Assembly (NCBI GenBank): GCA_016187025.1
Contig: JACPKM010000001.1
Span: 107,188 to 171,187 of the forward strand
DNA length: 64,000 nucleotides
Source: Candidatus Daviesbacteria bacterium
Lineage (GTDB): Bacteria; Patescibacteriota; Microgenomatia; Daviesbacterales; UBA10151
Reading direction: 5' to 3'
The position numbers were made by a program, and so were the translations under genes. Below the pieces are notes generated by a model. That model was given only the letters and a program-made list of their open reading frames with translations. It made no database searches and was not told the DNA's origin. This document shows positions 20,757 to 42,372 of this stretch, piece by piece (the stretch's first letter is position 1; the number at the start of each line of letters is the position of its first letter).

Positions 20757-21068
20757 TTAAATCAAACTCTGCTCTACTCCATAAACAATAGCATTAAGGG
20801 TGCTCCTAGCCTCTTCCAATCCGCGCATGCAAGCTTCTATATCCGCTTGTCTGTTCCATTCAGGATTCATCATTCTAATAACTGCTGATCTATAACTGAT
20901 TTTCTCAAAAGTTTTATAGTGCTTTGAGTCTTCACCAATCAGGTTATTCAAAATCATTAGGGTTTCTTCACGCCACTGGCGTAATCTATTAAAATCCACC
21001 TCTTTTAAAAGCTCATCAATAAAAGCTATTTTCTCTTTGAGCAATTGCAAATTACGATCTTCATTCAT
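20757..21068 (-). CDS. hypothetical protein (103 aa)
   Basis: ORF in an operon; overlaps the upstream gene by 8 nt. Confidence 0.5.
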   Translation of the reverse strand: MNEDRNLQLLKEKIAFIDELLKEVDFNRLRQWREETLMILNNLIGEDSKHYKTFEKISYRSAVIRMMNPEWNRQADIEACMRGLEEARSTLNAIVYGVEQSLI

Positions 21069-21255
21069 ATTTATTCTTTTGATGTATATTTATAAAATTC
21101 ACAATATCTTCCCTTCTATACCTCCTATCTCCTCGCGTACTCACTACTACAGCCTTTAACTTCCCCAAACGGTCCCAACGTCTTAGGGTCTCTGGATTGA
21201 CACCCAAAATCTCAGCTGCCTCGCGTATTCTTAACAACTTAATCATTTTAACCAT
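21061..21255 (-). CDS. excisionase/MerR-like HTH DNA-binding protein
   Basis: 'IREAAEILGVNPETLRRWDRLGKLKAVVVSTRGDRRYRREDI' is an HTH_17/Xis-like motif; start taken at internal Met (MVKMIK). Confidence 0.55.
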   Translation of the reverse strand: MVKMIKLLRIREAAEILGVNPETLRRWDRLGKLKAVVVSTRGDRRYRREDIVNFINIHQKNKYE

Positions 21256-21361
21256 AACTTCTACTAAATTATACACCTGCTCAGAATAAACTATAATAAG
21301 GTACAGGTAGACATAGAAGCAAGTTTTTCTTTTATTTAATAAGGAGGTTAGCTCAAGAGAT

Positions 21362-21883
21362 ATGACAAATGCAACAAAAAGCAACAAATTGCAACAAAAT
21401 TTCGACTCCCTGGAGCCTAAACACCAACAAGCTATTGATTTACGATTAGAAGGTCTTGCATATAAAGTAATTGCTAAATCTCTTAATTTGACTGAGCAAC
21501 ATGTAAGGCGTTGGTTTATGAAAGGTGGAACTTGCCATTACGCTTATCAACTTAAACAAAAACAAAGGATGAAAGATTGGCAAGAGGATTTTAAAAAAAT
21601 TGATGATAAATTAAAAGAAATAGCCACCGAAGCTGTTTTGGCTATTAAACAAAATGTACGCAAGGGAAGTTTGTGGGCTGCGTTTGGGGTATTAGATAGG
21701 GTAGGTTTTCAACCCATCCAAAAACTCCAGCCAATGACAGAACCAAAAGTACAGATTATCAATTATTCTTATCCCCAAAATGGGGAGTCTAAAACGATTG
21801 ATGGTGAAACAGAAACAAAAGAAGATACAGCATTACAACCTTGGCATCCCGAGGAAGAAATACTAACTACCAATAACCCCTAA
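21362..21883 (+). CDS. HTH-containing protein (terminase-small-subunit-like / sigma region-4-like)
   Basis: 'LRLEGLAYKVIAKSLNLTEQHVRRW' HTH; acidic C-terminus. Confidence 0.35.
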   Translation: MTNATKSNKLQQNFDSLEPKHQQAIDLRLEGLAYKVIAKSLNLTEQHVRRWFMKGGTCHYAYQLKQKQRMKDWQEDFKKIDDKLKEIATEAVLAIKQNVRKGSLWAAFGVLDRVGFQPIQKLQPMTEPKVQIINYSYPQNGESKTIDGETETKEDTALQPWHPEEEILTTNNP

Positions 21884-21887
21884 TGTA

Positions 21888-22100
21888 CTAAAAGGGGAAC
21901 AACTCCTGAACTTTAACGTTTAACACACGGGCTATTTTATAAATAGTCCGAAGAGAAGGCTTCCTATGGCCTGTTTCTATAAATTGGACATACTTCGTGC
22001 TTAAATCTAATCTCTCGGCCATTTGCTCCTGGGTCATCCCTGCTCCCTTTCTAAGTTTATGTATCTTCTTCCCTAACTTTATATCTTGCTCTGTTGCCAT
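21888..22100 (-). CDS. XRE-family (Cro/CI-like) transcriptional regulator
   Basis: 'MTQEQMAERLDLSTKYVQFIETGHRKPSLRTIYKIARVLNV'. Confidence 0.7.
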   Translation of the reverse strand: MATEQDIKLGKKIHKLRKGAGMTQEQMAERLDLSTKYVQFIETGHRKPSLRTIYKIARVLNVKVQELFPF

Positions 22101-22211
22101 ACCTTTTAAGGGTATAGATAAAGCAAATCCAGTTAAACCAACTGTGTGTCACCTTTTAAAGCTATATATAGGCTTGTTTTTACCCCCACTAACTGTTACC
22201 ATTACCTCAAA

Positions 22212-23180
22212 ATGGGCACAACATTTGCACTTTTATTTCTATTCTCCATTATTGGTTTAATCATAGGATTAATAAAACCTGCAGCTATTGCTAGGCTCAC
22301 TAAAATAACTCTACCCAGAAAAAAGCTTGCTTTGTTATTTGGAGGCCTTTCTTTGTTGTTTTTTATTTTAATTGGTGTTACCGCCGATCCCTCTACAAGG
22401 GTGCAATCAAACCAAACTAACACAGCAGCAGCCACGATTGACCAAACAACGCAAGCTACCAGTTCAGGCAACCTCCAAAATTCTCCATCCCCAACTTTGA
22501 CTCAAACACCTTCTGATAAACCTACTGACCCGGTAAAAACTGCTAAAGTAACCAGAGTTATTGATGGCGATACTATTGAGATAGAAGGTGGCCAGAAAGT
22601 CCGTTATATTGGTATTGATACCCCTGAAACAGTTGACCCCAGGACAACAGTCCAATGCTTTGGCAAAGAAGCCTCGGATAAAAATAAAGAGCTTGTGGGA
22701 GGTAAGGAAGTTAGGTTGGAGAAGGATGTTTCAGAAACTGATAAATACGGGAGGTTATTAAAGTATGTTTATGTAGGAGATACTTTTGTAAATGATTATT
22801 TGGTAAGGCAAGGCTATGCCCGTTCTTCAAGCTACCCTCCTGATATAAAGTATCAAGATCAATTCAGACAGGCAGAACAGGAAGCAAGAGGAACTCAAAA
22901 AGGCTTATGGGGATCAGCTTGCCAGTCATCACCTACTCCACAAGCTCCACAAACCCAATCCAGCCAAACAACAGGCACTACAGGCAGTTATACCGCCCCA
23001 CAACCTCAATCCGGAAGTTGTTTGATTAAGGGTAATATTAGTAGTTCAGGAGAGAAGATTTACCATATGCCTGGACAAAATTTTTACAATAAAACTGTTA
23101 TAGATACAAGCAAAGGTGAGCGTTGGTTCTGCTCAGAAGCTGAAGCCCAAACTGCTGGTTGGAGAAAAGCAAAAGTATAA
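22212..23180 (+). CDS. thermonuclease (SNase-like) with N-terminal TM anchor, Thr/Gln/Pro-rich linker and C-terminal Cys-containing domain
   Basis: 'VIDGDTIEI...VRYIGIDTPE...YGRLL' staphylococcal-nuclease motifs; C-terminal 'CLIKGNIS..GEKIYHMPGQ..FCSEAEAQTAGWR'. Confidence 0.75.
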   Translation: MGTTFALLFLFSIIGLIIGLIKPAAIARLTKITLPRKKLALLFGGLSLLFFILIGVTADPSTRVQSNQTNTAAATIDQTTQATSSGNLQNSPSPTLTQTPSDKPTDPVKTAKVTRVIDGDTIEIEGGQKVRYIGIDTPETVDPRTTVQCFGKEASDKNKELVGGKEVRLEKDVSETDKYGRLLKYVYVGDTFVNDYLVRQGYARSSSYPPDIKYQDQFRQAEQEARGTQKGLWGSACQSSPTPQAPQTQSSQTTGTTGSYTAPQPQSGSCLIKGNISSSGEKIYHMPGQNFYNKTVIDTSKGERWFCSEAEAQTAGWRKAKV

Positions 23181-23258
23181 ATACACCCTCTTAATTCGCA
23201 GATTATCTTACTCAACCTATTTTTGTTAAAATCAAGATAAATAAAGATAAGCATAAAA

Positions 23259-24071
23259 ATGAACAATTTATCTGAGGACTTAAAAGAATTTCTGCGATGG
23301 ATCAAGATGCAAAGTGATGAATATATCAATGAGCATCAAGAGTTGATCCTTGTAATGTTAAGGCTCATCACAGACACACAATTTCAGTTTGAAATACAAA
23401 AACTAAGATCAGAATATAATCTCCCCAAGAAATGGTATTTAGGAACTAAAAATGTTGATTTTTATAAAAAGATACACAAGGAGTATGAAGCTTGGCACAA
23501 AAGAAATACAAAAGAAGTACTTACAAAAGACCACCCAAAAATTTTAGAAATATGTAAACAGTTTAGGATTGACTCTTCTCGCTACGGTTTTTTTGTTTCA
23601 AACTATCTATATTTTAGAGACCTGAGACCACTTAAACCTTTAACCAATAATACATTTCTATCAAACGAGGAGTACCGCTATAAGGCACGTTTAGAGACTG
23701 CACAGGACGAAACAATGCCCTACTTAACAAAAGGGTATATTCGCTTCTTTCAAGATACAACACCTGAACAGCTCTTGCGGTTTGTTGAGGAAAATAAGGA
23801 TAAGATCAGATTGATCCGAAGCTGGTTACCCCTTTACCCACACACAAAGAAATTTAGCCTATTCAAAAGAGATATCCAAATATTTATACTCCATCTGCTC
23901 AACTATAAAACACCCAAAATATCAGATATTATTGCGGAAGAAAATCTATCCCAAGATGAAAACTCAAACATTGACTCTATTGAAAATAAATTCACACTCG
24001 AAGAAGCAGCTATTAGAGAAATTGTTAGAGATTTAACCCACCGCATAAAAAACCTCAAAAATATAATCTAA
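23259..24071 (+). CDS. hypothetical protein (270 aa)
   Basis: ORF. Confidence 0.5.
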   Translation: MNNLSEDLKEFLRWIKMQSDEYINEHQELILVMLRLITDTQFQFEIQKLRSEYNLPKKWYLGTKNVDFYKKIHKEYEAWHKRNTKEVLTKDHPKILEICKQFRIDSSRYGFFVSNYLYFRDLRPLKPLTNNTFLSNEEYRYKARLETAQDETMPYLTKGYIRFFQDTTPEQLLRFVEENKDKIRLIRSWLPLYPHTKKFSLFKRDIQIFILHLLNYKTPKISDIIAEENLSQDENSNIDSIENKFTLEEAAIREIVRDLTHRIKNLKNII

Positions 24072-24289
24072 AACGTAGGTTAAACCCACCCCTCTTTTGC
24101 TCTACGCAAAACTTAATCCTCTTTTTTAGAATAATCATAATGATTAAGAGGATTAAGAATAACTATCAAAATAATTTGAGTATAGATTTCATAGCCGAAA
24201 AATGGATCGGTATACTTTTTGCTCATATACAAAGTAAAAGAATTAGCAAAAAAACTAATTTAAATAACAAAATAAAGTGAGTATAAAAT

Positions 24290-24547
24290 ATGAACGATAA
24301 TCAGAATAAAACCTTTGCTACCGATAACTTTCAACTTGCTTGCTATTTGGTTTCAGAAGCAATACCCCTACTCTCTCTTGATAAAACAAATCCTAAGCGT
24401 GTGGTATTCATCCTTGAAGAAAGTGATAAAAGACGGGCCCTGACTCAAAAATACTTAAGTTATATGGCAGAAACTGAAGTGCATCGCATTTTTTCAGCTC
24501 AAAAGGATCTTAAACAAATGATCTATCAAAATAAATCAAACTTATGA
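24290..24547 (+). CDS. DUF5659-like small protein (paralog of 37885..38136)
   Basis: Translation aligns with the 83-aa protein at 37885 ('F.T.D...A.YL.S..I.L......P.....VF..E.S'). Confidence 0.55.
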   Translation: MNDNQNKTFATDNFQLACYLVSEAIPLLSLDKTNPKRVVFILEESDKRRALTQKYLSYMAETEVHRIFSAQKDLKQMIYQNKSNL

Positions 24548-24874
24548 ATTATGAATATCCACAAAATAATGACTGTTAAAAGAAAAATGATTAACTATAT
24601 TTTTTATTCATTATTTGCAATCGTAAAGGGCTCATCCGTTATGAGTGTTTAGACGATTTAAAACAAATCTAAACAAAGTGAACGGCAACCGACCGAAACG
24701 ACCATACGGGCAGAACTGTAGGGCGCGCCCTCACTGGTAGATAGATCAAATAACAGTTACAAGGTTTATCTATTAACAGGGCTGTGTATTAACTACGGTA
24801 GCAGGTACTAAAACACCTGCCCGGAGGTGCGGTGAGGAGGGAAGATATTTAAAGGAGGGTTGGAAGAAATAAAT

Positions 24875-25018
24875 ATGAGTAAACAAGTAAACAAAAAAAT
24901 GAAACAGAAAGCCACAAAACTGGTTAGGATCAGCGCAGAGTTACATAGAAGACTAAAAATCGAGTCGGCTATCACTCAAACAACGATTGGAGAGCTTATT
25001 GAGAAACATCTTGTTTAA
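24875..25018 (+). CDS. small RHH-like DNA-binding protein (47 aa; paralog of 38151..38372)
   Basis: Not in the ORF track; 'KLVRISAELHRRLKIESAITQTTIGELIEKHL' matches 'TLVRIDAELHRLLKIKAVAERTTIRTLIEGAL' of the second module. Confidence 0.5.
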   Translation: MSKQVNKKMKQKATKLVRISAELHRRLKIESAITQTTIGELIEKHLV

Positions 25019-25054
25019 TACCTTTTAATTATGTTATATAATTAAGTATAAGTA

Positions 25055-25279
25055 ATGAGCCTGTTTAAGAAACCGTGCATGGTAGATTATAAAGAAATGT
25101 TAGCTGAAGCTAGGGCTATATATTTGGCTATGAAACAAGGCGCTATAAGTTATGAAAAAGCAAAGTTAATGACAACGCCATATTTGGAGATAATCAATAA
25201 ACGAGTAAGGAAGCTAGCCCGTAAGCATGGAGTATATGCAAAAGAGATTAGATTCAATGATTTAAACAGAAATATATGA
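25055..25279 (+). CDS. hypothetical small protein
   Basis: ORF overlapping the recombinase start. Confidence 0.4.
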   Translation: MSLFKKPCMVDYKEMLAEARAIYLAMKQGAISYEKAKLMTTPYLEIINKRVRKLARKHGVYAKEIRFNDLNRNI

Positions 25280-26787
25280 AAAATTGTTATGTTTATTTAA
25301 GAGTGTCAACAGATGAGCAAGCCAATGAGGGTTTTTCTTTAGATAATCAAAAGAGGTCCTGTTTGGATTATGCTCAAATGTGTGGCTACCACGTTAAGAA
25401 AGTCTTTGAAGATGGAGGTAGAAGCGGTAAAACTACAGACCGGCCTGCGTTTCAAGAATTACTCGCCTTAATTCAAGAAAATTCTGTAGATGCAGTTATT
25501 ATTTATAAAATAGACCGTTTTGCCAGAAATGTAGGTGATTTTTCAAATATAAGAAAGCAATTCAAGCAATTAGGGATTAAGCTGCTTTCAGTATCCGAGA
25601 ATGGAGATGTAACAGAGGGTTTAATAGGCAATATCTTTGCTTCAGTTGCAGAATGGGAGTCAGAGGTTAATGGACAAAGGACAAAAGATGCTTTAATGCA
25701 GAAGTTTAGAGAGGGCTGGCAGCCCACTCCTCCCCCAATAGGCTATATAAGCATTGGCGGTGACAGGGAGAGAAAAACTTGCGAACCAGATCCTTATGTT
25801 GCACCGATTATCAAAGAGTTATATGAGTTATACGCTACTGGTAATTATTCAATCCTAGAATTACAAGAGTGGTTAAGCGATAAAAACCTTATTTCTAAAA
25901 CTGGTACAGGATTAGGGCATAGTGTAATTTGTAATATTCTCAATAACCCCTTTTATTACGGTTTGATCCGATGGAGGGGAGAATCTAAGATCGGTAAACA
26001 TATCCCCATTATCACCAGAGAGCTATTTGATACTTGCCAGTATGTTTTAGCCAAGCACAGAAACTTCCTTTTACGAAGGCGTACACACAACTTTCTACTC
26101 AGAGGATTTATTTATTGTGCTGAGTGTGGCCAGCGGTATACTGCTGAATGGCATAAAAACGAGCACAAATTCAAGCATAGAGGCGGTAAAATTGGTTATT
26201 ACCACTGTATAAAACTAGGAAGAAATGGTTGTCCTGCTCCTTATGTAGAAATATCCGAGCTTGAAAAGTTGGTTGAAAAGGAGTTTAAAAACATGCAGTT
26301 TAGCCAGGAGTTTATAGATGCGGTAGTCAGAAAGACCAGAGAACGCCTTGAAAACAACCGTAAATCGGCTAATGCCGTCAAACAAGGCATGCTTAACCAA
26401 AAAACCGCCTTAGAAACAAAAAGAAATAAGCTGGAAGATGCTTTACTGGATGCAACAATAGACAGGGACACTTTCAAAAGAAAGCACACAGAGATTCATG
26501 ACAAGATTTTGAACTTAGAGGCACAAATTCAAGAAACTGACGCCCAGAGTCAAATAGACATAGATTTGATTGATGAGGTATTAGCTTTTACCAGAAACAT
26601 CTACCAAACATATAAAGATGCTCCAACTTACCTTAAAAGACATTACTTAAGATTCTTTTATGAGAAGCTAATTGTAAGAAATAAAGAAGTTGTTGAGGCA
26701 GTGCCAACACCAATCTTCTTGTCCCTACAAGCTAATCAAGCGGTTATAATAACAGCTTTCAGCTCCCCAGCTCTGAAGTTATTATAG
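25276..26787 (+). CDS. large serine recombinase (resolvase/invertase N-domain + recombinase + zinc-ribbon)
   Basis: 'CYVYLRVSTDEQ' catalytic Ser context; 'IIYKIDRFARN'; Cys-rich zinc-ribbon 'CAECGQRYT...YYHC'; C-terminal coiled coil. Confidence 0.85.
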   Translation: MKNCYVYLRVSTDEQANEGFSLDNQKRSCLDYAQMCGYHVKKVFEDGGRSGKTTDRPAFQELLALIQENSVDAVIIYKIDRFARNVGDFSNIRKQFKQLGIKLLSVSENGDVTEGLIGNIFASVAEWESEVNGQRTKDALMQKFREGWQPTPPPIGYISIGGDRERKTCEPDPYVAPIIKELYELYATGNYSILELQEWLSDKNLISKTGTGLGHSVICNILNNPFYYGLIRWRGESKIGKHIPIITRELFDTCQYVLAKHRNFLLRRRTHNFLLRGFIYCAECGQRYTAEWHKNEHKFKHRGGKIGYYHCIKLGRNGCPAPYVEISELEKLVEKEFKNMQFSQEFIDAVVRKTRERLENNRKSANAVKQGMLNQKTALETKRNKLEDALLDATIDRDTFKRKHTEIHDKILNLEAQIQETDAQSQIDIDLIDEVLAFTRNIYQTYKDAPTYLKRHYLRFFYEKLIVRNKEVVEAVPTPIFLSLQANQAVIITAFSSPALKLL

Positions 26788-26898
26788 AAGGGGTATCAAG
26801 TATATTAAAGACTTTTGAAGATGTTATTGAAATGGGAATAATCAAGGCCAGATGGGAAGAAATTAAAAGAGTCCAGAAGATACCTAACGCTACATGTA

Positions 26899-28098
26899 TT
26901 AGGTGTTAATAACCATATCAATATTCGGTACATCTCCATATTTACGTAATACTGTTATAAATTTCTCACCAAAATCTGGGGATTTGATTAGAATCTCTGG
27001 ATTCCCACTTTCTTCAATCAACCATTCGCCGCTACTAGTTTCTTGGTCAGTTCCATAGTGATATGAATAGTTGGTAAAAAGTATTGCATTACTGGGTGCA
27101 GGTTTACCCCTTGTAGCGAAAGTAGCGTTATCTCTCATTTTTGTAACTGCCTTTACCCAAGGAATATCATTTGGATTAGCGCCTGGAGAAAGAGGTAGAT
27201 TCATATCAATAAAAATAATGAATGGTTTACCGTGAGGTTTCTGTTTCAAAGCATGCCTATATAACTTCGCAACACTCGAACGAAACTCTTTTTCCTTGTT
27301 AAACTCACCTTCTTTATGCAAAACCCCTTCTCTTTCTTTACTCTTAACTTCAACTGCAATTTCTTCACCAGTTCCAGGGTTTGTAGCGATAAATTCCGAG
27401 TGCTTTGGTTGAGTTTTTTGGCCTACAAATTCTTCATCAAGAAATTTTATCTTATACCCCATTCGAGCAAATAATGCAGCTACAGCTATCTCATATCTAA
27501 CACTTTGATATTCTATATAGTTCCTTAGCTTCTTTAAGAAAATCTCTGGTAGATGCACTGCATGGATGAGACTACATACATCAAAGGCTAATGAAATCAA
27601 AGCACGAGAGTAACCATCTGGTATAGCTCGCCAACCTTCTCCATACCTATTTTCTGGAATCTTATTTTTATCTTGCCAATCGTAATGTTTTATAAAACAT
27701 CTGTAAATAAAATGTTGTTTATCCTCTGGTGATTCCATTTGTTTTATCCACCAATCACGACCCAACTCCTCTTTTAGAACATATATTATAAATTCATGAA
27801 AAGTCTCTTTCTTTGGTCGACGAGGGTATAAACGACTACTAAGTGCCCACACTTTATTGCCCCTAAAATGTGTTGGTGTCACAAAATCAATGAATACACC
27901 AGCTTGTACTAGTTTTTTTCGTCTTTCGATCATCTGCATTTCTAGTTCTTGCCTAATGCGTTCAAGTTCTGGAGTAGACTTTAATTTTTTAATAATTGAG
28001 GTCTTCAGCGACCCCCCGCTTAGTAGATGACACTTTTTATACTTTTTCCCGCTTCCACAAGGGCAAGGGTTATTTCTTCCAATCTTAGCCATAAACAA
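26899..28098 (-). CDS. SEC-C-motif protein of unknown function (399 aa)
   Basis: N-terminal '[18 protein letters not shown]' SEC-C zinc-binding motif; intact copy of the gene decayed at 8342..9140. Confidence 0.65.
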   Translation of the reverse strand: MFMAKIGRNNPCPCGSGKKYKKCHLLSGGSLKTSIIKKLKSTPELERIRQELEMQMIERRKKLVQAGVFIDFVTPTHFRGNKVWALSSRLYPRRPKKETFHEFIIYVLKEELGRDWWIKQMESPEDKQHFIYRCFIKHYDWQDKNKIPENRYGEGWRAIPDGYSRALISLAFDVCSLIHAVHLPEIFLKKLRNYIEYQSVRYEIAVAALFARMGYKIKFLDEEFVGQKTQPKHSEFIATNPGTGEEIAVEVKSKEREGVLHKEGEFNKEKEFRSSVAKLYRHALKQKPHGKPFIIFIDMNLPLSPGANPNDIPWVKAVTKMRDNATFATRGKPAPSNAILFTNYSYHYGTDQETSSGEWLIEESGNPEILIKSPDFGEKFITVLRKYGDVPNIDMVINT

Positions 28099-28131
28099 AT
28101 CAATGTTAGAAATTATTATATAATTTACCTT

Positions 28132-28326: not shown

Positions 28327-28372
28327 TGAGGCTGACAGTCTCATTACCCGCATCTTTAATCCTAAATGCTAG

Positions 28373-31554: not shown

Positions 31555-31556
31555 GT

Positions 31557-33336: not shown

Positions 33337-33400
33337 ATTACTATATAGGTTAGTTACTCAAAAGTATGTATTTAGCTTGTTCTGGTGAACCATACTGACT

Positions 33401-34165: not shown

Positions 34166-34179
34166 ATTTGTAAAATATG

Positions 34180-35029: not shown

Positions 35030-35179
35030 TGTTTAGCTTTAAATATTGTAACACATACTTACAAGTAATCAACTGTTGTAAGTTTTATTGACAAATATCT
35101 GAATCTATTGTAAGCTATACTTAAACTATTACAGTTATTCTTACAATACAACTTAGAAATCTGAAAGGGGGTGATTAAA

Positions 35180-35305
35180 TTGGCAGCAAAAACAAGGACA
35201 GAAGGTAGAAACGCAAAAAACGGCAGATTTGTTAAGGATAGCTACGTAAAGCAACATCCTAACACTACAGTGCTTGAGCGGATCAAAAACCCTAATAAAG
35301 GTTAA
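35180..35305 (+). CDS. small basic protein (41 aa), TTG start
   Basis: Very strong RBS 'aaagggggtga' 9 nt upstream; peptide (M)AAKTRTEGRNAKNGRFVKDSYVKQHPNTTVLERIKNPNKG. Confidence 0.3.
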   Translation: MAAKTRTEGRNAKNGRFVKDSYVKQHPNTTVLERIKNPNKG

Positions 35306-35361
35306 GGATAAAAGAGGAAGGGAGCCACAATTCCCTTCCTCTATTCTTTCATTACTTACCA

Positions 35362-35571
35362 TTAAAAGTCAAACAATTGAAGAATCTTTACATCTAAAGC
35401 GTTAGCAATCTTCCATATGGTTTTTAACATTGGATCTCTATTACCATTCTCCAGCTCATTAATGGTAGTAAGATCCAACTTTGACTTTTGAGCCAAGGCA
35501 AGTTGAGACATCTTTCTCTGCTCTCGTAGCTTCTTAACCCTTTGTCCAAATCTCTCATTAACTGTAGCCAT
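35362..35571 (-). CDS. XRE-family (Cro/CI-like) regulator, paralog of 21888..22100
   Basis: 'MSQLALAQKSKLDLTTINELENGNRDPMLKTIWKIANALDVKILQLFDF' parallels the other module's regulator. Confidence 0.7.
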   Translation of the reverse strand: MATVNERFGQRVKKLREQRKMSQLALAQKSKLDLTTINELENGNRDPMLKTIWKIANALDVKILQLFDF

Positions 35572-35680
35572 ATATTAAAAAAGTATGGCGCAGATGCCAT
35601 ACTTGCGATATGGCGAGGATGCCAAATTTGGTGCTTGTCCTCTAGCTAAAAATTACATAAAATAGCATTGTAGTATTTCT

Positions 35681-36391
35681 ATGCGTACTTGGTATAAAAA
35701 ATCAATTGTTATTATTGGTTCAATTATTCTTTTCTTCCCTGTGGGATTATTTCTAATGTGGAAATATGCAGGATGGAATAAAAAGGTTAAGTGGGCAATT
35801 ACCTCTTTATTTGCCTTTGTAATCCTAATAAGCTTAATTCCAAGTAAACAGGCTATTGTCCCAACAACCGCCACTCCACCCCCTACACAAAACCCCTCTC
35901 CTAAGCCTACTCTTAAACCCCTATCTTCCCCTGTTCCTGCAGTTAAACCAGCAAATGAAGCTGTTTCTTCAACATTAGAGAAGATAGAAAAACTTGTAGC
36001 TGAAAAATATCCTAACTTTGAAGTAACAATTTGGAACAAGGACTCGGAATTAGCCACTGAGGGTGAAATTCCATACGAAGTTATTCTTAATGGTTCATTT
36101 AATGAAACTGCGTCCAGCTGCGATGCTGCAAAGAAGGCTTCCTACTACATGTTAGAAACTTTCTATAAGGATAATGAGATAAGACCTATTCTAAGCCGGG
36201 TATTAATTACCTTCCCTTATTACTTAAGAGTCAGTTTAGGCGCAAGTGATGGGGTGTCTATGGCAGAAGGTAGTGGCTTTTCTGGTCCAACTAATTTCTG
36301 GAAAGTTGTTGAAAGTGCGGGAATGGGTGAGAACGAGCAGGGAGAGATGGAAGCTCGTAGCTGGGCAGTCTATCTGACCCGGTGTAAATAG
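35681..36391 (+). CDS. membrane-anchored/secreted protein with Pro/Thr-rich linker
   Basis: N-terminal TM helices, 'PTTATPPPTQNPSPKPTLKPLSSPVPAVKP' linker. Confidence 0.55.
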   Translation: MRTWYKKSIVIIGSIILFFPVGLFLMWKYAGWNKKVKWAITSLFAFVILISLIPSKQAIVPTTATPPPTQNPSPKPTLKPLSSPVPAVKPANEAVSSTLEKIEKLVAEKYPNFEVTIWNKDSELATEGEIPYEVILNGSFNETASSCDAAKKASYYMLETFYKDNEIRPILSRVLITFPYYLRVSLGASDGVSMAEGSGFSGPTNFWKVVESAGMGENEQGEMEARSWAVYLTRCK

Positions 36392-36502
36392 GCTCTCACA
36401 CCTTATTTCTATTTATTAATAATCTATTACCATAATCAATTATCACAGGGCTAAAAACCACCCTTAAGACGGTGAGATTGGTGATTGACCACAGATTGAG
36501 GT

Positions 36503-36564
36503 GTCTCAAAAACTAGTGGCATATTTGTGGCTAAAATGCCACAGTAGGAGGGAGTTTTTGAGAC
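36503..36564. repeat. nested perfect inverted repeats (12-bp gtctcaaaaact/agtttttgagac around 7-bp gtggcat/atgccac) in a 444-nt non-coding region
   Basis: Read directly from the sequence; three 'ggctaaaa' and three 'gattg' short repeats nearby. Confidence 0.6.
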
Positions 36565-36835
36565 AGTTTTGACAAATCCAGGGGGAATGATGGCTCAAGT
36601 AGGTTAAAAAGATTCCATAATGCACTATAGAATCTTTTTAATAAACCAATCTTCTCGTATTTATTTCAATTTTATTTAAAGCTATTAAAAATCTCTGATG
36701 GTCATAAAGTTCTCCCTAAAATTAGGGCATATTTTGAGGCTAAAAACACTAAAAGAAGGGGGATATTTGGGAGAGGTGTTGTGCCTGAAGCATATATTTG
36801 TTAACTCTCTCCCAGGTCTCTATAATCGCTCTTAG

Positions 36836-37681
36836 ATGAAGATTGAGAAAAAATATAGGTTTATTGATATCCAGGGAAGTGATTTTGGCAAACTAACCGA
36901 TATTGCCTATCTTGTTGATAATTTATATTTTCTAGATAAAGTTGAGGAAATAAGAGAAAAACTCGGTCTGACTTTTGAGTACCCCCTGTCCAAAACAGAT
37001 GAGGAAAAGATTGACAAGATGTTTGAATACAAAAATAAAGAGCTAAATGAAAACCTTTCTAAAGAAGCTGAAAGAATTAGAAAACTTTTTAAAATGCCGC
37101 CCCATTTTAGAGAAGTCATACAGATTGCAATTATTTATGGAAAAATTAATGACTTTAATTACTCAAAAGCATACTTGGAAAAACAAGAAATTACACCTAC
37201 TAATGATCCTAACGAAGTACCGGATATTAAATACTGCATTGTTATCCATTCAGGTACAGGAATTGAAGATATTAAGAAAGTATTTAGGAAATTTCAGGAT
37301 GAAGTAAGAATAAACTTCAAAGCATCAGAAGAAGAAAAGCACAGGTACAATTTTGGTTATTGGCTTGAATTTGGTTTGACCAGACCAATGGATCCAAAAA
37401 CCAGTATCACTGATCTCCGCCCCTTATATCATCTTAGAAGGAATGGGATGAAGCCTTTGGAAATTGCACTAAAAGATTTAAGAATATCTAAAAAACAATA
37501 TAAAGAGGCTTTAGAGGGATGTAGGCTGAATAATAAAGGCAGACTGGACAATAAAGAGAAAAGTAAAAGATATGATGAATGTGATGCTTTAATTGTAAGG
37601 GTTCAACAAAGAAGAGATAGTATTAAGTCCCTTATAAAGCGATATATTGACTTTCTTAGTGCTCCAAATTCATTATTGTAA
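36836..37681 (+). CDS. hypothetical protein (281 aa)
   Basis: ORF. Confidence 0.5.
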   Translation: MKIEKKYRFIDIQGSDFGKLTDIAYLVDNLYFLDKVEEIREKLGLTFEYPLSKTDEEKIDKMFEYKNKELNENLSKEAERIRKLFKMPPHFREVIQIAIIYGKINDFNYSKAYLEKQEITPTNDPNEVPDIKYCIVIHSGTGIEDIKKVFRKFQDEVRINFKASEEEKHRYNFGYWLEFGLTRPMDPKTSITDLRPLYHLRRNGMKPLEIALKDLRISKKQYKEALEGCRLNNKGRLDNKEKSKRYDECDALIVRVQQRRDSIKSLIKRYIDFLSAPNSLL

Positions 37682-37884
37682 ACACTTAACTCCTTCCTAT
37701 CTACAACCCATACTTTTCTAATTTCAGGATCTAAAATAAACCCAAATGCTGGGAAATATTGAAAACAAATCCAAGATTGACTATCAAAAGCAGATTGAAC
37801 TTGCAGCGGAACAGCTAGCTCAAATCTTAATCCAGCAGGTCATAAGTAAAAATAACCAGATTAAAAACAAAATTAATAATAAAT

Positions 37885-38136
37885 ATGGAGAATCAAACAG
37901 ATAATTTTTCAACATCAGACATAAAAATTGCAAGCTATCTTCTAAGTAAAGGCATATCACTTATTGGGGTCGAGAGACCACAGGTCAGAAAAGTTATTTT
38001 TGTCTTCGAAAAGTCCAATTTAATCACACAATTAATCCAAGATTATTTATCAGATAAAGCAATCGTAAATCCGAGAGTTTTGTTTGAAAGTTTTGCAAAC
38101 CTGAAAAGTATTATTTTTAGAGAAATAGGGATTTAA
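37885..38136 (+). CDS. DUF5659-like small protein (paralog of 24290..24547)
   Basis: See 24290. Confidence 0.55.
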   Translation: MENQTDNFSTSDIKIASYLLSKGISLIGVERPQVRKVIFVFEKSNLITQLIQDYLSDKAIVNPRVLFESFANLKSIIFREIGI

Positions 38137-38150
38137 AGACAAGTAAAGAA

Positions 38151-38372
38151 TTGATAATAAATATGCATAATACCAAATTAAGCCCATTCCAAAATAAACA
38201 AATTAACAAAAACCATACAACCTTGGTGCGGATAGATGCCGAGTTGCATAGATTACTGAAAATAAAGGCAGTGGCAGAAAGAACCACTATCAGGACTCTT
38301 ATAGAAGGTGCTCTGGCAGATGTATTGGAAGTGAAATCTGATAAGAAACAGGGAGTTGAGAATAATGATTAA
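38151..38372 (+). CDS. RHH-like small DNA-binding protein (paralog of 24875..25018)
   Basis: See 24875. Confidence 0.5.
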   Translation: MIINMHNTKLSPFQNKQINKNHTTLVRIDAELHRLLKIKAVAERTTIRTLIEGALADVLEVKSDKKQGVENND

Positions 38373-39216
38373 AAATTTAGCAGTCCAATATGAAAATCCC
38401 AGTACTGATTACTTCAAGGTTAGGAATAGTTTTGCGGAGGCACTTGCGCGTATTAACACCTCTGAATATGAAACAAGGTTGTTGTGGGTGATAATACGCA
38501 AAACCTGGGGTTGGAATAAAGATGAAGACTATATTTCAGTAACTCAATTCGAGAAGGCAACAGGTATTAACAGAAGCAATGCACACCCTTCTCTACTCAA
38601 ACTTGAAGAAAAGAAAATTATCATAATTAATAGAACAGGTCATATTAATAAGTATAGGATCAATACCAATGTTAATGAGTGGGTGCACAAGGAAGGGAAA
38701 AATGTTATTCCCATAAATAATGTTATTCCAGCAGATAATATTATCCCTCCAACTAATACCCCGTTATTTGAGGACATAACAACTTCGTTATCTCAAGAGA
38801 CCATAACAAAAGAAACAGAAAAGACAATTAAACAAAACACAAGTAATATAAATAGCGACAGTATTAAAAATTCATTACCAGTGAAAACAGAACAACCTAA
38901 TAAACAGATCCCTCTTCAGAAACTGGTTTCTTATTATAAGCAGCTCTACAAAGGTAAATTTAACCATGAACCAGTCATTAGCAGTATGAGTTGGGGGAAA
39001 TGGGGAAAGTTGCTGAAAACAAAACTTGAACAAGGATATTCCTTAAAAGAAATTGCCATCCTGCTTCAAACTTTTGCTAAATCAAAAGAATCAGATCCAA
39101 AAAGACTAGGTTTTGACCTTGGCGCCTTCTTTTCCGATTATGTCTTCAATAAAATGCAAGCAATTAAAAGCAAGAGGGTTGATGTAGCCACGGAAGGAAA
39201 ATATGATAAATATTAA
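38356..39216 (+). CDS. replication initiation / phage-replisome-organiser-like protein
   Basis: N-terminal 'RLLWVIIRKTWGWNKDEDYISVTQFEKATGINRSNAHPSLLKLEEKKII' wHTH resembles Rep / replisome organiser N-domains. Confidence 0.5.
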   Translation: MRIMIKNLAVQYENPSTDYFKVRNSFAEALARINTSEYETRLLWVIIRKTWGWNKDEDYISVTQFEKATGINRSNAHPSLLKLEEKKIIIINRTGHINKYRINTNVNEWVHKEGKNVIPINNVIPADNIIPPTNTPLFEDITTSLSQETITKETEKTIKQNTSNINSDSIKNSLPVKTEQPNKQIPLQKLVSYYKQLYKGKFNHEPVISSMSWGKWGKLLKTKLEQGYSLKEIAILLQTFAKSKESDPKRLGFDLGAFFSDYVFNKMQAIKSKRVDVATEGKYDKY

Positions 39217-40069
39217 ATCTAACCTGCCTATTTGTAGTTTGTGTGGTAAACAGATTAATTCCCTTGGTTTTGAGGATAGAATTATTAGGAATCACCGAGA
39301 TAAACCAGATGAATTTGGATTGTGGAATTTAGATGCACAGCTTGATATTAAAGAATTTGAAAAAGATATTCACTTAAAGTGCCGCATTCGGTGTGCCAGA
39401 TATTATCGTGTTGAGTTGAAACGTAAATGGCTTTCAACAGAGCTGTTTGAGGTTACTAACGATAACAGAACCGCATATGAAGCCCTAGAAAAAATGAAGG
39501 GGATGAATTATGAAGAGATGAAATCTAACGGTATATACCTTTACGGGCAGCCTGGAACAGGTAAAACACATTTACTTACTGATCTTTGCCGCACCATCAC
39601 TGACCGACATACCAATCTGGCTAATATATCATGGGTAAACACTTCAGATATGCTTATAAATCTCCGTTCTAGCTTCGGCAAAAAATATGAATATAGGGAA
39701 GAAACTGAATCAGAAAAGATCCTAAAAAAATTAAAAGCCAGATTTTTATTTTTAGACGATCTGGGCACAGAAGCTGCCACAGAGTGGGCAAAGGAAATTC
39801 TCTATGGAGCTATAAATTATAGGTATGATGAACAGCTTCCACTCTTTGTAACCAGCAACTTATCTCCTAAAGAATTGGAAGACAAAATGGGGGATAAATT
39901 TACTTCGAGAATAGTTGGAATGTGTAAGCCTGTAAGGATAGCAGGAGAAGATCGGCGTTTAGATGCCAAGGAACAAAATCCTAATATAGCATTGCCCATA
40001 TTCTCATATCAAATGGCATATTGGAATCCAGAGGAAAACGTACCTGAAAATAAGGCAGGTAGAAATTAA
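39203..40069 (+). CDS. DnaC/IstB-like AAA+ ATPase (helicase-loader-like)
   Basis: Walker A 'GQPGTGKTHL', Walker B 'FLFLDDLGTE'. Confidence 0.7.
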   Translation: MINIKSNLPICSLCGKQINSLGFEDRIIRNHRDKPDEFGLWNLDAQLDIKEFEKDIHLKCRIRCARYYRVELKRKWLSTELFEVTNDNRTAYEALEKMKGMNYEEMKSNGIYLYGQPGTGKTHLLTDLCRTITDRHTNLANISWVNTSDMLINLRSSFGKKYEYREETESEKILKKLKARFLFLDDLGTEAATEWAKEILYGAINYRYDEQLPLFVTSNLSPKELEDKMGDKFTSRIVGMCKPVRIAGEDRRLDAKEQNPNIALPIFSYQMAYWNPEENVPENKAGRN

Positions 40070-40084
40070 AGAAAGGGGGTTTAA

Positions 40085-40240
40085 GTGTCTAAATATATTT
40101 TGCTAGTAAAGAAAAGCGGGCAAGTTATCAAATTAGCATCCAAGGATTTCCCCATACAAAGAAGAGGAGGGGTAGGCGTAAAAGCAGTTATCCTTGCTAA
40201 GGGTGATGCGGTAGTAGCGGCAGTTGCACTTGAAAGTTAA
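40085..40240 (+). CDS. small protein (51 aa) resembling a single GyrA C-terminal beta-propeller blade
   Basis: GTG start with strong RBS 'aaagggggt'; 'RRGGVGVKAVILAKGDAVVAAVAL' resembles the gyrase CTD repeat. Confidence 0.3.
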   Translation: MSKYILLVKKSGQVIKLASKDFPIQRRGGVGVKAVILAKGDAVVAAVALES

Positions 40241-40285
40241 TGTATCAATTTAAAAAATACAAAGTATGGAAGGAGGTGAGCTTAT

Positions 40286-40534
40286 TTGAAAATTTTAACT
40301 TTTAGCAGAATTTCTTCTCAAGATCAGGAGAAATTGGCTTTACAACAAAGTCATAAACAGGATGTTGAGGTGGAAAACGAAAATGGATGTACCTACCTGG
40401 TTTGTCATAAGTGTGATGGTTTTTGGGTGGTGGACACGCTCTCTAGATGGATCAGATACCCTAAAGGAGAGTTGAGAGAAAGAAAACGCTACCCAAAACC
40501 AAGATGTCCATTTTGTGATAAAGTCGGAGTTTAA
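40286..40534 (+). CDS. zinc-ribbon small protein
   Basis: CHKCDG...CPFCDK. Confidence 0.45.
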   Translation: MKILTFSRISSQDQEKLALQQSHKQDVEVENENGCTYLVCHKCDGFWVVDTLSRWIRYPKGELRERKRYPKPRCPFCDKVGV

Positions 40535-40657
40535 TATTTACTATGAGGTATATATAATAAATTAGCTAATAAAAATAGAGCCTCCAGGCCTGAATAACCA
40601 AGGGAAGCTCTATTACGCTTAGGTGAGTCGTTTTGAGGCGGACTACGCCCTATTTGT

Positions 40658-40825
40658 ATGAACACTATACCAAAAATAAATAAAAATATCCAAGAACAAG
40701 ATGCTGAATTGATGAATGACAAAAAATTCATCTTTATGGTTTGCAACAGATGTGGATGGGCTGGGATAGCAACCACTTTTTCAAAGAAATACCTTTCAAG
40801 ACCAAAATGTCCATCTTGTAAATAA
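40658..40825 (+). CDS. zinc-ribbon small protein (55 aa, paralog of 40286..40534)
   Basis: Not in the ORF track; CNRCGW...CPSCK. Confidence 0.4.
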   Translation: MNTIPKINKNIQEQDAELMNDKKFIFMVCNRCGWAGIATTFSKKYLSRPKCPSCK

Positions 40826-40833
40826 GAATAACA

Positions 40834-42372
40834 ATGACAACAACAAAAAAGGCAATAATTTATACGAGAGTTTCGGACCCAGGCCAGGTCAGCGGTCTAT
40901 CTTTAGATGTCCAAAGGGAGAAGTGTTCTAAATGGGCAAAAGATCACGGCTTTCAGGTAGTAGGCATATATGAGGACGGTGGCAAAACAGGAACAAAAAC
41001 TGTCGGTCGAGATGGCCTTGAAGATGTCATTATTCACTGTCAGAGAGAAAAAATAGACGTAGTACTGGTGATTGATACAGACCGAATTGCGAGAAACGAA
41101 TTTGATCACTTTTCAATCCGAAATGAGTTGAAAAAACAGGGCACATTACTTATTGCCATAAATCAACCGCTAATTGATGGTTCGGCAGAGGGGTTGTTGA
41201 TGGATGGAATGCTGGCTTCAATAAATGCTTTTTATAGCAGGTTAACTGGACGTAAAGTAAGAAAGAGTTTGGAGAAAAAATGGGAGGATGGTATTTATCC
41301 TTCATGGGCCCCCCTAGGTTATATCAATGTTAATAAAGGCACTGAAGAGAAACCTCACCGCGTAATTGAGATTGATCCTAAAACTGGACCGCTTATTAAA
41401 ATGCTTTTTAAAATGTATGCAACAGGCAGTCATTCGTACCTTTCCCTTTCCCGAATAATGTTTAAAAAAGGATTAACTGCAAGAAATGGGAAAGTGCTTT
41501 CCGACAGCAGCTTGCAACAGATATTGTCTTGCACCTTTTATTACGGGTGGATGAAATGGGGCGGTATGGAAAAATGGGGTATCCATAAACCATTAATCAA
41601 TAAGACATTATTTGATCAATGCCAGTTTACAGCAGCAAAGCACCGGCAATTTCTTGTCCGCCAGAGGAAGCATGATTTCCTTTTAAGAGGAGTTGTCTTG
41701 TGCTCAAAGCATGATTCAAGGTTTACGGCAGAATGGCATTATTATCACCACGATCATTACAAAAAACAAAAAATCGGCTATTACCATTGCCACTTTCAGG
41801 GAGGCTGCTCTGGTTCTTATATCGAGGTAAATGAGCTTGAAAAGAGAGTTGCTAATCTTTTCAAAAACTATCAATTTGACCAGGAGTTTATTGATCTGGT
41901 AAGACAAAAGGTTAGAGATTATTTAAATGATGGAAGAAAGACCCTTGAGTCTCAAAGACAGGCAATTATTAACAGACGGAAGGTAGTGGAAGATAAAAGG
42001 AACAATTTAGAAGATTTGCTGGTAGCAGGAACAGTTGAAAGGGAGACTTATCAAAGACAGCATATCAAGCTCCATGGGGGAATAGAAGTTTTAGACAATG
42101 AATTGGCAGAGTTAGAACATCAGCGGAGTATTGATGTAACGCTGATAGATGAAATTTTGGCGCTAAGCAGAGATATTTATAAGACTTACTCAACCGCCCC
42201 CACTTTCCTCAAAAGACATTACCTAAGATTCTTCTTTGAGGCTGTCTATGTTGATGAAAAAAGAATCACTAAGGTGGTTGAAACACCGCTGTTTGCAACC
42301 TTGCGCAGGCAACACCACATTATAATAAGGACCAACTGGCTCCCCCGGGAGGATTCGAACCTCCAACCTTGA
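40834..42372 (+). CDS. large serine recombinase (paralog of 25276..26787)
   Basis: 'IIYTRVSDPGQ' Ser context, 'VIDTDRIARN', zinc ribbon; the 3' end overlaps the tRNA-Asn 3' exon by ~36 nt. Confidence 0.85.
   Translation: MTTTKKAIIYTRVSDPGQVSGLSLDVQREKCSKWAKDHGFQVVGIYEDGGKTGTKTVGRDGLEDVIIHCQREKIDVVLVIDTDRIARNEFDHFSIRNELKKQGTLLIAINQPLIDGSAEGLLMDGMLASINAFYSRLTGRKVRKSLEKKWEDGIYPSWAPLGYINVNKGTEEKPHRVIEIDPKTGPLIKMLFKMYATGSHSYLSLSRIMFKKGLTARNGKVLSDSSLQQILSCTFYYGWMKWGGMEKWGIHKPLINKTLFDQCQFTAAKHRQFLVRQRKHDFLLRGVVLCSKHDSRFTAEWHYYHHDHYKKQKIGYYHCHFQGGCSGSYIEVNELEKRVANLFKNYQFDQEFIDLVRQKVRDYLNDGRKTLESQRQAIINRRKVVEDKRNNLEDLLVAGTVERETYQRQHIKLHGGIEVLDNELAELEHQRSIDVTLIDEILALSRDIYKTYSTAPTFLKRHYLRFFFEAVYVDEKRITKVVETPLFATLRRQHHIIIRTNWLPREDSNLQP

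Follow-up and report, generated by a model that had tools for sequence, protein, structure and literature searches.

A 64,000-nt stretch of the chromosome of a Candidatus Daviesbacteria bacterium (contig JACPKM010000001.1, positions 107,188 to 171,187; hereafter the window), a Microgenomates member of the candidate phyla radiation (CPR, Patescibacteria), contains between 8.2 and 42.3 kb what is probably an array of units integrated one after another at the 3′ end of a tRNA-Asn(GUU) gene. The two units nearest the tRNA, designated E1 and E2, are the youngest and are complete, and each ends in a gene for a large serine recombinase (rec1 and rec2, respectively). A first-pass annotation of the window had recognized two modules with a shared gene order at roughly 21061-26787 and 35362-42372. 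These exist, and are the conserved right-hand halves of E1 and E2 rather than whole elements, since the true boundaries are wider and 18977-21060 also belongs to E1. The element boundaries, an intron in the tRNA, older decayed units to the left and an attachment site within the recombinase reading frame had escaped that annotation. The confidence expressed above applies jointly to the array at tRNA-Asn, to E1 and E2 as elements and to a recombinase open reading frame (ORF) that spans attP, the attachment site of the free element. The tandem-integration model is well supported, and an exchange of the recombinase C-terminus upon integration, as yet unproven, is supported by the logic of the sequence.

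The target gene lies on the minus strand at 42337-42623 and consists of a 5′ exon (42590-42623), an intron (42378-42589) and a 3′ exon (42337-42377) in which the CCA is encoded. Because a group I intron interrupts the gene, ARAGORN with default settings called no tRNA near 42372; in its intron-aware mode the program reported a tRNA-Asn(gtt) whose anticodon loop holds a 212-nt intron, and Rfam RF00028 (group I intron) matched 42385-42599 on the minus strand (69.3 bits, E=1.7e-15). The first-pass annotation had placed the second module against a tRNA, and this tRNA is therefore real, if intron-containing. The spliced 75-nt sequence folds into a canonical tRNA-Asn cloverleaf and the 3′ exon is overlapped by the final 36 nt of rec2, so that an intact tRNA stands at the element end as in islands of the Islander type; the recombinase C-terminus, ...WLPREDSNLQP, is the antisense reading of the tRNA. 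The intron itself sits after the second anticodon base. Similarly interrupted tRNA-Asn genes were found in other loci, cited here by number (L020, L023, L026, L036, L038, L040, L042, L044, L045, L047, L049, L052, L059, L061, L062, L066, L075 and L230), and the arrangement occurs in about one third of the recombinase-adjacent tRNA-Asn genes of other Microgenomates species, all of them missed by default scans. Rfam confirmed a group I intron in five of the six interrupted tRNAs tested among loci sampled at one genome per species. Group I introns in CPR tRNAs have been mentioned in passing in one paper (PMC8172020).

The tRNA-proximal (attR-type) junction is marked by the heptamer GCTCCCC at 42339-42345 (+), the complement of tRNA positions 68-74 (acceptor 3′ strand, discriminator and first C of CCA), and the same heptamer is common to every left junction. 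It occurs eight times on the plus strand of the window, where by our own estimate fewer than one copy is expected from base composition. Four copies (12599, 14964, 18973 and 26762) precede a related arm, with the variants CAGCCTTGGATTAC[T/A]ATACC, AGACCTTGAATTATTATACC and AGCTCTGAAGTTATTATAGA, and all have one orientation, matching the tRNA copy at 42339. E2 (~26766-42342, +, ~15.6 kb) is bounded by the junctions at 26762 and 42339; its left junction (26762-26906, +) comprises the core (26762-26768), the conserved arm AGCTCTGAAGTTATTATAG... and a tail-coding segment at 26769-26906. E1 (~18977-26765, +, ~7.8 kb) lies between the junctions at 18973 and 26762, and its left junction (18973-19109, +) likewise consists of the core (18973-18979), the arm AGACCTTGAATTATTATACC and a tail-coding segment. 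The att-like ends anticipated for the two modules are thus present, as GCTCCCC with the conserved arm at 18973 and 26762 and as the core again at 42339.

The rec1 gene (25276-26787, +) encodes 503 aa as it stands, its last codons now being read out of frame from the left end of E2 (...SSPALKLL*). In L009, a relative of rec1 that is 70% identical ends on tRNA-Asn and reads ...ATGCTCCCCGACTAGGATTCGAACC, against ...TCAGCTCCCCAGCTCTGAAG in rec1, with no difference up to the end of GCTCCCC and divergence beyond it. The GCTCCCC at 26762 falls within the final codons of rec1, which is most simply explained if E1 was at one time directly next to the tRNA, in the manner of its L009 relative. At other loci the junctions part company right after GCTC or GCTCC (L053, L077, L081), and together with the shared core these divergence points would place the crossover in or next to GCTC, at tRNA positions ~71-74. 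A long direct repeat of the tRNA 3′ end was considered as the boundary and rejected: a 26-nt probe of that end, with up to three mismatches allowed, found no second copy in the window, only 7 nt (GCTCCCC) being repeated, and the 7-nt core with its arm was adopted instead. The missing tRNA-fragment repeat fits expectation, since the integrase is a serine and not a tyrosine recombinase.

Each left junction is followed by a segment of about 130 nt that can be read as a peptide with the consensus ..IL.AFQN..YIGELRQRW.EIKKLQ, here called the tail. Copies were found in 20 genome-scan and context loci in addition to the window, always on the recombinase strand and upstream of the recombinase, and an alignment scan with the tail peptide located 453 metagenome sites. 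In the window, a tail hidden Markov model (HMM) matched at 18978 in E1 (E=9e-18) and at 26769 in E2 (E=3e-16). Among 22 distinct tail copies the mean pairwise identities at codon positions 1, 2 and 3 were 0.55, 0.67 and 0.40, and since conservation follows the order 2 > 1 > 3 the tail is of coding type; the segment has no conserved start codon. The frame in which the core is read is the same for recombinase and tail, with an offset of 2 in 15 loci and in E2 and an offset of 1 in E1; L044 is a weak exception. When each recombinase is joined to the left end of its own element at GCTC, open ORFs of 550 aa (rec2) and 541 aa (rec1) result, ending ...WLPSSEVIIEGVSSILKTFEDVIEMGIIKARWEEIKRVQKIPNATCIRC and ...SSPDLELLYPKVLEAFSNKSYVGELRQRWLEIKKLQFNSSTKIYVM, respectively, compared with 512 and 503 aa in the integrated state. 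Recombinases with the tail fused to them are present among database proteins (P0089, P0067, P0037, P0079) and in genomes (L053, L055, L058, L062, L063), for example where a distal recombinase reads in frame into the tail of the next unit. The reconstruction, the agreement in frame and the coding-type conservation all point to an attachment site inside the integrase ORF, as in self-splitting integrases, and the reconstructed attP has a weak dyad, TTATAATAA ... N~26 ... TTATTATA, centered on the inferred crossover. Judged by these features, the circular form probably carries attP within the recombinase ORF, so that integration would swap the C-terminus.

The sequence of events suggested by this arrangement is as follows. 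A free circle would carry attP within the 3′ end of the recombinase ORF, and the recombinase would exchange strands between attP and an attB located in the acceptor 3′ strand and discriminator of tRNA-Asn (core GCTC[C]). A few 3′-terminal tRNA nucleotides would then be contributed by the element, leaving the tRNA intact. The last ~40 codons of the recombinase, encoding the conserved two-helix tail (..AFQN..YIGELRQRWxEIKKLQ), would land at the far left end of the element, and the integrated recombinase gene would stop a few codons into the tRNA antisense instead. E2 would have arrived later than E1, between it and the tRNA, leaving rec1 to read out of frame into the E2 left end; units further to the left would be older, their recombinases lost and their tails decaying.

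Such older units can be recognized. The junction at 14964-15105 (+), with the core and the arm GCTCCCCCAGCCTTGGATTACAATACC, is followed by a decayed tail with a stop codon and a ~40-nt insertion before an RWEEIK remnant at 15087; it gave only weak tail HMM fragments and was found by a Hamming scan and alignment. It heads a recombinase-less unit (14971-18976) that carries a HigB/HigA-like pair and two genes without assigned function. The junction at 12599-12700 (+), with the core and the arm GCTCCCCCAGCCTTGGATTACTATACC, heads a second recombinase-less unit (12606-14963), and only the first half of its tail is recognizable (tail HMM E=0.0085). The oldest recognizable junction, at 8203-8342 (+), has a second type of arm, ACTCGAGGATCGTAACGTTAATATAACC (compare GCTCGAGGATCGTAACG in L035), and a tail remnant, NITSQFVRIFKVFEDFKFISQLREE; the tail HMM matched at 8220 (E=1e-9) and the junction, at ~8205, resembles those of L035 and L053. 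Directly after it lies a frameshifted SEC-C paralogue split into two ORFs (8342-9140, −), the other copy of which opens E2, suggesting that a similar element was once integrated near 8205. Generic repeat finding gave only weak hints, its repeat D4 proving to be the RWEEIK part of the tail. With ~8205, 12599, 14964, 18973, 26762 and the tRNA, several att-type junctions thus stand in direct orientation, the inner units lacking an integrase, and two recombinases in tandem occur in other loci as well (L010, L011, L040, L062, L063). As read from translations, the older units and the right flank (9470-11651, 14639-15842 and 45746-46328) also encode a LexA-like repressor, a restriction-modification pair made up of an N4/N6 methylase and a probable endonuclease, and toxin-antitoxin pairs, making the tRNA-Asn site a hotspot for defense and addiction genes.

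Several observations weigh against parts of this explanation. Dyad symmetry in the reconstructed attP sites reaches a modest 11-13 of 22. Neither an excised circle nor a contig carrying attP was seen, and the fused ORFs with readable flanks (for example L062, L063, L073 and L228) are chromosomal or in tandem; in the search for circular forms, L073 showed two 88%-identical tails with no duplicated element, and L228 and L229 were chromosomal or too short. Close relatives of rec2 in L001, L004 and L006 are without a family-1 tail within 10 kb upstream, and because the tails fall into at least three unrelated families they do not form one universal domain. An AlphaFold2 model of P0089 shows the tail as two helices of predicted local distance difference test scores 50-73, following a disordered linker, on a well-modelled enzyme body. 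The agreement in frame across loci is largely inherited and represents few independent events. The left boundary of the whole array is not fixed. Finally, many array units are without a recombinase, and the 30 nt to the left of the cores of 76 distinct junctions carry only ~0.1 bit per position. This last observation is unexpected, since under simple accretion each inner junction should have a recombinase 3′ end on its left; either the recombinases were removed by precise, probably site-specific deletions, or cassettes with one-sided sites were moved in trans.

An extended form of the attP-in-frame explanation was also considered, according to which the full-length and the tRNA-terminated recombinases differ in activity or directionality, forming a switch independent of a recombination directionality factor (RDF), while the one-sided site (core, arm and tail) allows recombinase-less cassettes to accumulate in integron-like tRNA-Asn arrays across Microgenomates. 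Full-length protein would come from the circle, or arise where a tandem neighbor restores the tail in frame, and a role of the tail in directionality is hypothesized by analogy with the self-splitting integrases of archaea. If correct, the recombinase would have a built-in control without a separate RDF; we regard this tentative proposal as less likely than not.

The tail might instead be no part of the recombinase, being a separate micro-protein with a TTG, GTG or ATG start that overlaps the core, or an extended DNA arm for accessory proteins, with attP merely abutting the recombinase stop codon. Several junctions do read TTG, GTG or ATG followed by CTC-CCC at the core, intact-looking tails are common in recombinase-less arrays, and the conserved arm corresponds to the first ~8 codons of the tail. 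However, a tRNA with encoded CCA, such as the one in the window, makes the core codon TGG and hence offers no start, and no conserved ribosome-binding site precedes the segment. Conservation reaches ~100 nt past a normal attP arm with codon position 2 > 1 > 3, the frame of the tail covaries with that of its own recombinase, as E1 and E2 illustrate, and database proteins have the tail fused to the recombinase. A separate tail is consequently considered unlikely.

The second alternative concerns the recombinase-less units. Metagenome contigs contain recombinase-less arrays of up to 5-6 junctions spaced 0.5-5 kb apart (L154, L162, L173, L187), the window itself holds three recombinase-less units, and among the 76 junctions the right side is strongly conserved (GCTCCCCGAgCCTAGGATTAATATAAC) and the left side is not. 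All of this would suit an integron-like cassette platform at tRNA-Asn, in which units with a one-sided site (core, arm and tail) are moved in trans and E1 and E2 are the autonomous members. Large serine recombinases are known to need two half-sites on each partner, which speaks against such a platform. Moreover, no circular cassette was seen, two of the three old units in the window have decaying tails, as befits dead remnants, and deletion of recombinases from accreted elements could look the same. Taken together, these points make the platform rather improbable. A CCGTAGAAATT motif had suggested that recombinase-less units might end on the right in a conserved arm of B type; this was rejected, as only 11 of the 76 junctions have the motif and the left side carries ~0.1 bit per position.

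A scan at one genome per species recovered 396 recombinase relatives, almost all in Microgenomates/Patescibacteria, of which 78 loci were kept and 68 had an evaluable recombinase 3′ end. The 3′ end lay on an uninterrupted tRNA-Asn in 32 of the 68 and on an interrupted tRNA with the T arm in place in 17, so that 49 of 68 relatives sit on tRNA-Asn; five ran into a tail segment, one adjoined another tRNA and 13 showed none of these arrangements, several of them being GCTCCCC junctions beyond which a tRNA-Asn follows at 0.7-7 kb. In L001-L008, whose recombinases are 65-78% identical to rec2, every recombinase 3′ end overlaps a tRNA-Asn(GUU) on the opposite strand. The first-pass annotation had proposed a family of small serine-recombinase integrative elements or a composite island; with 396 relatives and a tandem array at one tRNA-Asn, both halves of that proposal apply. 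Many of the records recovered, among them L012, L015, L019, L020 and L022, are titled 'uncultured Gammaproteobacteria' or 'Pseudomonadales'. Since their recombinase, tRNA-Asn context and accessory genes match Microgenomates/Patescibacteria loci, the taxon labels of these metagenome-assembled genomes look doubtful.

To the right of the array, the window has rpoD (42737-43825, −), dnaG (43864-45651, −), several tRNA genes and a tmRNA gene, in a chromosome segment of ~37% G+C. Empty-site relatives, which the annotation had called for, were found through DnaG in L230 and L232 (73% and 68% identical, hence fairly distant relatives). Both retain dnaG-rpoD-tRNA-Asn and have no recombinase and no tail beyond the tRNA; the tRNA of L230 contains an intron, and that of L232 is without an intron and is followed by ordinary genes. 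By tblastx the window is syntenic with L230, L231 and L232 from 42737 to ~57-61 kb, and no synteny with them remained to the left of the tRNA, barring one junction-type match of L231 to 14965-15051, so that synteny breaks at the tRNA. Among close DnaG homologues, P0140 and P0215 are ~986 aa long with LAGLIDADG/intein-type Pfam domains, suggesting inteins in the primase of related Microgenomates; the window DnaG (595 aa) has none.

These data also bear on whether anything at this site is mobile today. If the recombinase had been a fixed, domesticated gene beside tRNA-Asn since the ancestor of Microgenomates, with the repeats as relics, the very widespread adjacency of recombinase and tRNA-Asn and the failure to find a circular form would follow. 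This is very unlikely, given the empty tRNA-Asn sites in relatives with the same right-hand synteny, cargo and element size that vary in every genome, and two different recombinase clades stacked in the window. The adjacency is also seen in unrelated neighborhoods: L001-L009 cover at least two, with L004 and L006 sharing the rpoD-dnaG of the window and L001 differing. Purifying selection on a tail that can be translated only after excision or in tandem likewise argues for recent activity. One candidate att-mediated event was rejected: L006 (2410-9118) and L008 (5219-5229) have identical recombinases, are 100% identical outside a 6.7-kb segment and differ by this segment, which is flanked by an 11-nt repeat; its right breakpoint cuts a DUF5659 gene, so that a microhomology deletion or an assembly chimera is indicated rather than an att event.

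The recombinases themselves look active, as far as their sequences can tell. Residues R12, S14, D83, R84 and R87 of the catalytic site are invariant in an alignment of 16 sequences, in which the Cys columns are also conserved. In Pfam, rec1 matches PF00239 (Resolvase, E=7e-34), PF07508 (Recombinase, above cut-off) and PF13408 (Zn_ribbon_recom, 40.3 bits, above cut-off); rec2 (40834-42372, +) matches PF00239 (E=7e-28) and PF07508 (above cut-off), with PF13408 just under the cut-off (23.4 versus 25.3 bits). In the AlphaFold2 model of the homologue P0089, helices 343-390 and 396-436 form a long hairpin, consistent with a coiled coil. E1 and E2 are best described as small integrative elements that probably form episomes, and E2 can probably replicate as an episome after excision, since it encodes RepO-like and DnaC-like proteins; E1 has no recognizable replication gene. 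No relaxase or type IV secretion system family was detected among the scanned ORFs, a HerA-like ATPase giving only sub-threshold TraG/TrwB P-loop matches, and no tyrosine recombinase was found among the 32 ORFs scanned between 19.1 and 42.4 kb. The replication genes match phage families, XRE/ImmA-type regulators are present and the product of 21362-21883 has a weak small-terminase-like match (E=4e-4), as might be expected of prophages or phage satellites using a serine integrase. Such an origin is nonetheless hard to credit, because Pfam and PHROGs identified no capsid, portal, tail or lysis gene among the scanned ORFs, E1 measures just 7.8 kb, and among the 2.9 million contigs of IMG/VR the best recombinase relative is 27% identical, with no close one.

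The gene order noted in the first-pass annotation holds in the window and, recurring in up to 83 related loci, characterizes the family. The recombinases are homologous (25276-26787 versus 40834-42372, 40% over 498 aa, E=2e-136, BLASTP), as are the DUF5659 proteins (24290-24547 versus 37885-38136, 31%, E=3e-13, BLASTP) and the RHH proteins (24875-25018 versus 38151-38372, 50% over 46 aa, E=2e-11). The proposed homology of the XRE proteins holds for 21888-22100 (−) and 35362-35571 (−), at 39% identity (E=5e-15), whereas the ORF at 21061-21387, with which the first module had been made to begin, is MerR/HTH_17 and not XRE. The 270- and 281-aa proteins have no BLAST similarity; profiles of their families, built from the local ORF set of 89 related loci, do align (HHalign probability 91%, E=1e-6, 213 columns). 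A membrane-anchored protein with a Pro/Thr linker is indeed present in both modules, that of the first being an SNase, yet the two have only a transmembrane segment and the linker in common and are positional analogues, not homologues. In the related loci the order is XRE/HTH_17 (2.6-3.6 kb upstream of the recombinase and mostly on the opposite strand), the 270/281-aa family (1.3-1.6 kb upstream; median 1.6 kb for the 281-aa family in 23 loci), DUF5659 (on the recombinase strand, with a median of 0.9 kb from its end to the recombinase start in 46 loci), small genes and the recombinase. DUF5659 and the 270/281-aa family are the most conserved accessory proteins; PHROGs and Pfam assigned no function to these or to the 74-aa and 236-aa proteins, and the 281-aa protein had no structural neighbor in PDB. 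An orphan RNA family also appears tied to these elements: LOOT RNA (RF03000, 68-83 bits) lies just upstream of a 212-277-aa core gene in related elements (L004 6921-7030, −; L006 7552-7663, +; L016 7375-7483, −), and Rfam found no LOOT match in the window. Internal duplication of a single composite island, with the modules as paralogues arisen in situ, would account for their adjacency, shared orientation and shared gene order, but can be set aside with near certainty, since the recombinases are 40% identical to each other and ~70-78% identical to those of other genomes, so that the clades of rec1 and rec2, which are distinct, split long before meeting here, since the two modules have separate junctions and separate in-frame tails, the frames being different, and since single elements of either clade sit alone on tRNA-Asn elsewhere.

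From left to right, E1 contains four genes without assigned function (19087-21068, −), the excisionase-type MerR/HTH_17 gene (21061-21387, −; Pfam), an HTH protein gene (21362-21883), XRE (21888-22100, −), a secreted SNase nuclease (22146-23180; Pfam), the 270-aa core protein (23259-24071), DUF5659 (24290-24547; Pfam), a 327-nt spacer (24548-24874), a short RHH ORF (24875-25018), a 74-aa ORF that overlaps the start of rec1 (25055-25279) and rec1. The spacer, a non-coding insert between DUF5659 and RHH that is present in E1 only, had been described as GC-rich and structured. It is richer in G+C (up to 47%, compared with a flanking range of 21-41%), and the structure is weakly supported, with folding z-scores of −2.1 on the plus and −1.1 on the minus strand. 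A search of 18.9-42.7 kb with Rfam (E≤1) gave no RNA family for the spacer or for the other gaps, and nhmmer searches with three intergenic gaps, including the spacer, against 229 related loci (2.8 Mb) returned nothing. A small ORF of 52-74 aa directly precedes the recombinase in both elements (25055-25279 and 40658-40825) and in L001 (9786-10004), L228 (5368-5544) and L229 (90-248). It overlaps the recombinase start by 4 nt in E1, L001, L228 and L229, and ends 8 nt upstream of rec2 in E2. The small proteins of E1 and E2 are not homologous and are candidate accessory or directionality factors.

The left half of E2 encodes a SEC-C protein of 399 aa (26899-28098, −), Vsr (28027-28326), a HerA-like ATPase (28373-29971), a 534-aa protein with no assigned family (29950-31554), a D12 methylase (31557-32612) and an ImmA-like/XRE pair (34180-35029, −). 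Pfam, PHROGs and PADLOC confirmed the HerA-like ATPase, Vsr, D12 methylase and ImmA/XRE. The defense-like cargo that had been placed between the modules is therefore there (HerA, Vsr and D12 methylase in Pfam), not as a separate region, but as the left half of E2. A near-perfect hairpin with a 25-bp stem, possibly a terminator or operator, lies at 35299-35358 (+) between the ImmA/XRE pair and the XRE gene of the second module; an Rfam match of this segment to MIR529 was dismissed as spurious, reflecting merely the hairpin. The right half consists of XRE (35362-35571, −), the membrane protein with the Pro/Thr linker (35681-36391), the 281-aa core protein (36836-37681), DUF5659 (37885-38136), RHH (38151-38372), a RepO-like initiator (38356-39216; Phage_rep_O in Pfam, replication initiation O-like in PHROGs), a DnaC-like loader (39203-40069; IstB/DnaA-type ATPase in Pfam, DnaC-like helicase loader in PHROGs), small Cys-rich proteins (40286-40534 and 40658-40825) and rec2. 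A Rep-like initiator and a DnaC/IstB-like ATPase had been read from the translations of this half, and both were borne out.

The nearest precedent for the array is provided by the ssrA-specific islands of Dehalococcoides, described in 2011, in which a serine recombinase uses the tmRNA 3′ end and islands stand in tandem (PMC3146451). Common to both are small elements with a serine recombinase of ~500-540 aa at the 3′ end of a tRNA-like gene, tandem arrays marked by a repeated target fragment, a conserved integration module with variable cargo, and units without an integration module, interpreted in Dehalococcoides as cis-mobilizable or fixed (PMC3146451). However, the target there is the tmRNA gene with a 20-bp direct repeat (PMC3146451), whereas here it is a true tRNA (Asn) with a shared core of 4-7 bp. 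Moreover, DsiB of Dehalococcoides adjoins attL and is paired with a small second recombinase, whereas the present recombinase gene lies at attR, is directed into the tRNA and has an ORF that extends across the site. The Dehalococcoides hosts belong to a different phylum, and the likeness to the present elements is one of features, not of sequence comparison. Successive integration at one att site, with inner units that may lack an integrase, is also known from accretion of the ICESt1/ICESt3 type (as cited in PMC3146451); those elements have tyrosine integrases and conjugative transfer, whereas no conjugation or relaxase genes were detected here and the inner junctions are conserved on one side only. 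A tyrosine integrase is likewise called for by the Islander-type signature, in contrast to the serine recombinase found here. Integrons depend on an IntI-type tyrosine recombinase and structured attC sites; here no such recombinase is encoded by the 32 ORFs, and the unit ends corresponding to attC are unconserved.

With the serine integrases of temperate phages (phiC31, Bxb1 and the A118/LI type), rec1 and rec2 share the domain set (resolvase, recombinase, and a zinc ribbon bearing a long coiled coil), att sites that are short and have no long direct repeats, and an attP beside the integrase gene. Phage serine integrases target protein-coding genes or intergenic sites, whereas the present family targets tRNA-Asn, has no structural genes and, on the explanation preferred here, has attP within the ORF and a C-terminus that changes on integration. 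No RDF was identified in the present elements. A site inside the integrase gene, transfer of the 3′ part to the other end of the element and the use of tRNA genes as targets recall the 'suicidal' archaeal integrases of the SSV1/pTN3/pT26-2 type, which are tyrosine recombinases, are reported to be exclusive to archaea, and for which the split has been proposed as a built-in control of directionality (PMC8371274). In those enzymes the split parts the N-terminal from the catalytic C-terminal piece and inactivates the protein (PMC8371274), whereas here a bacterial (CPR) serine recombinase would lose a ~40-aa tail beyond all recognized domains and gain 5-12 residues of tRNA antisense. Within the literature searched, the coverage of which was incomplete, no account was found of the present recombinase family, of DUF5659, or of any serine integrase using tRNA-Asn in Patescibacteria.

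tRNA genes are classic targets of tyrosine integrases. That a whole clade of serine recombinases consistently uses tRNA-Asn, where the target could be read, contrasts with the published statement that tRNA genes were not among the known targets of serine recombinases (Hudson et al. 2015, PMC4383910). If the split ORF is real, the family would be a bacterial, serine-family counterpart of the archaeal self-splitting integrases and would offer a simple model of directionality through C-terminal exchange. The intron-split tRNA and the 4-7-bp core hide islands of this kind from standard island finders based on tRNA fragments. To our knowledge, few mobile elements have been described in CPR/Patescibacteria, and there are no genetic tools for these organisms. 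A compact integrase with a defined and universally present target, the 3′ end of tRNA-Asn, is thus a candidate genetic tool for CPR bacteria. The arrays, in turn, show tRNA-Asn to be a major hotspot at which these reduced genomes collect defense, toxin-antitoxin and restriction-modification genes.

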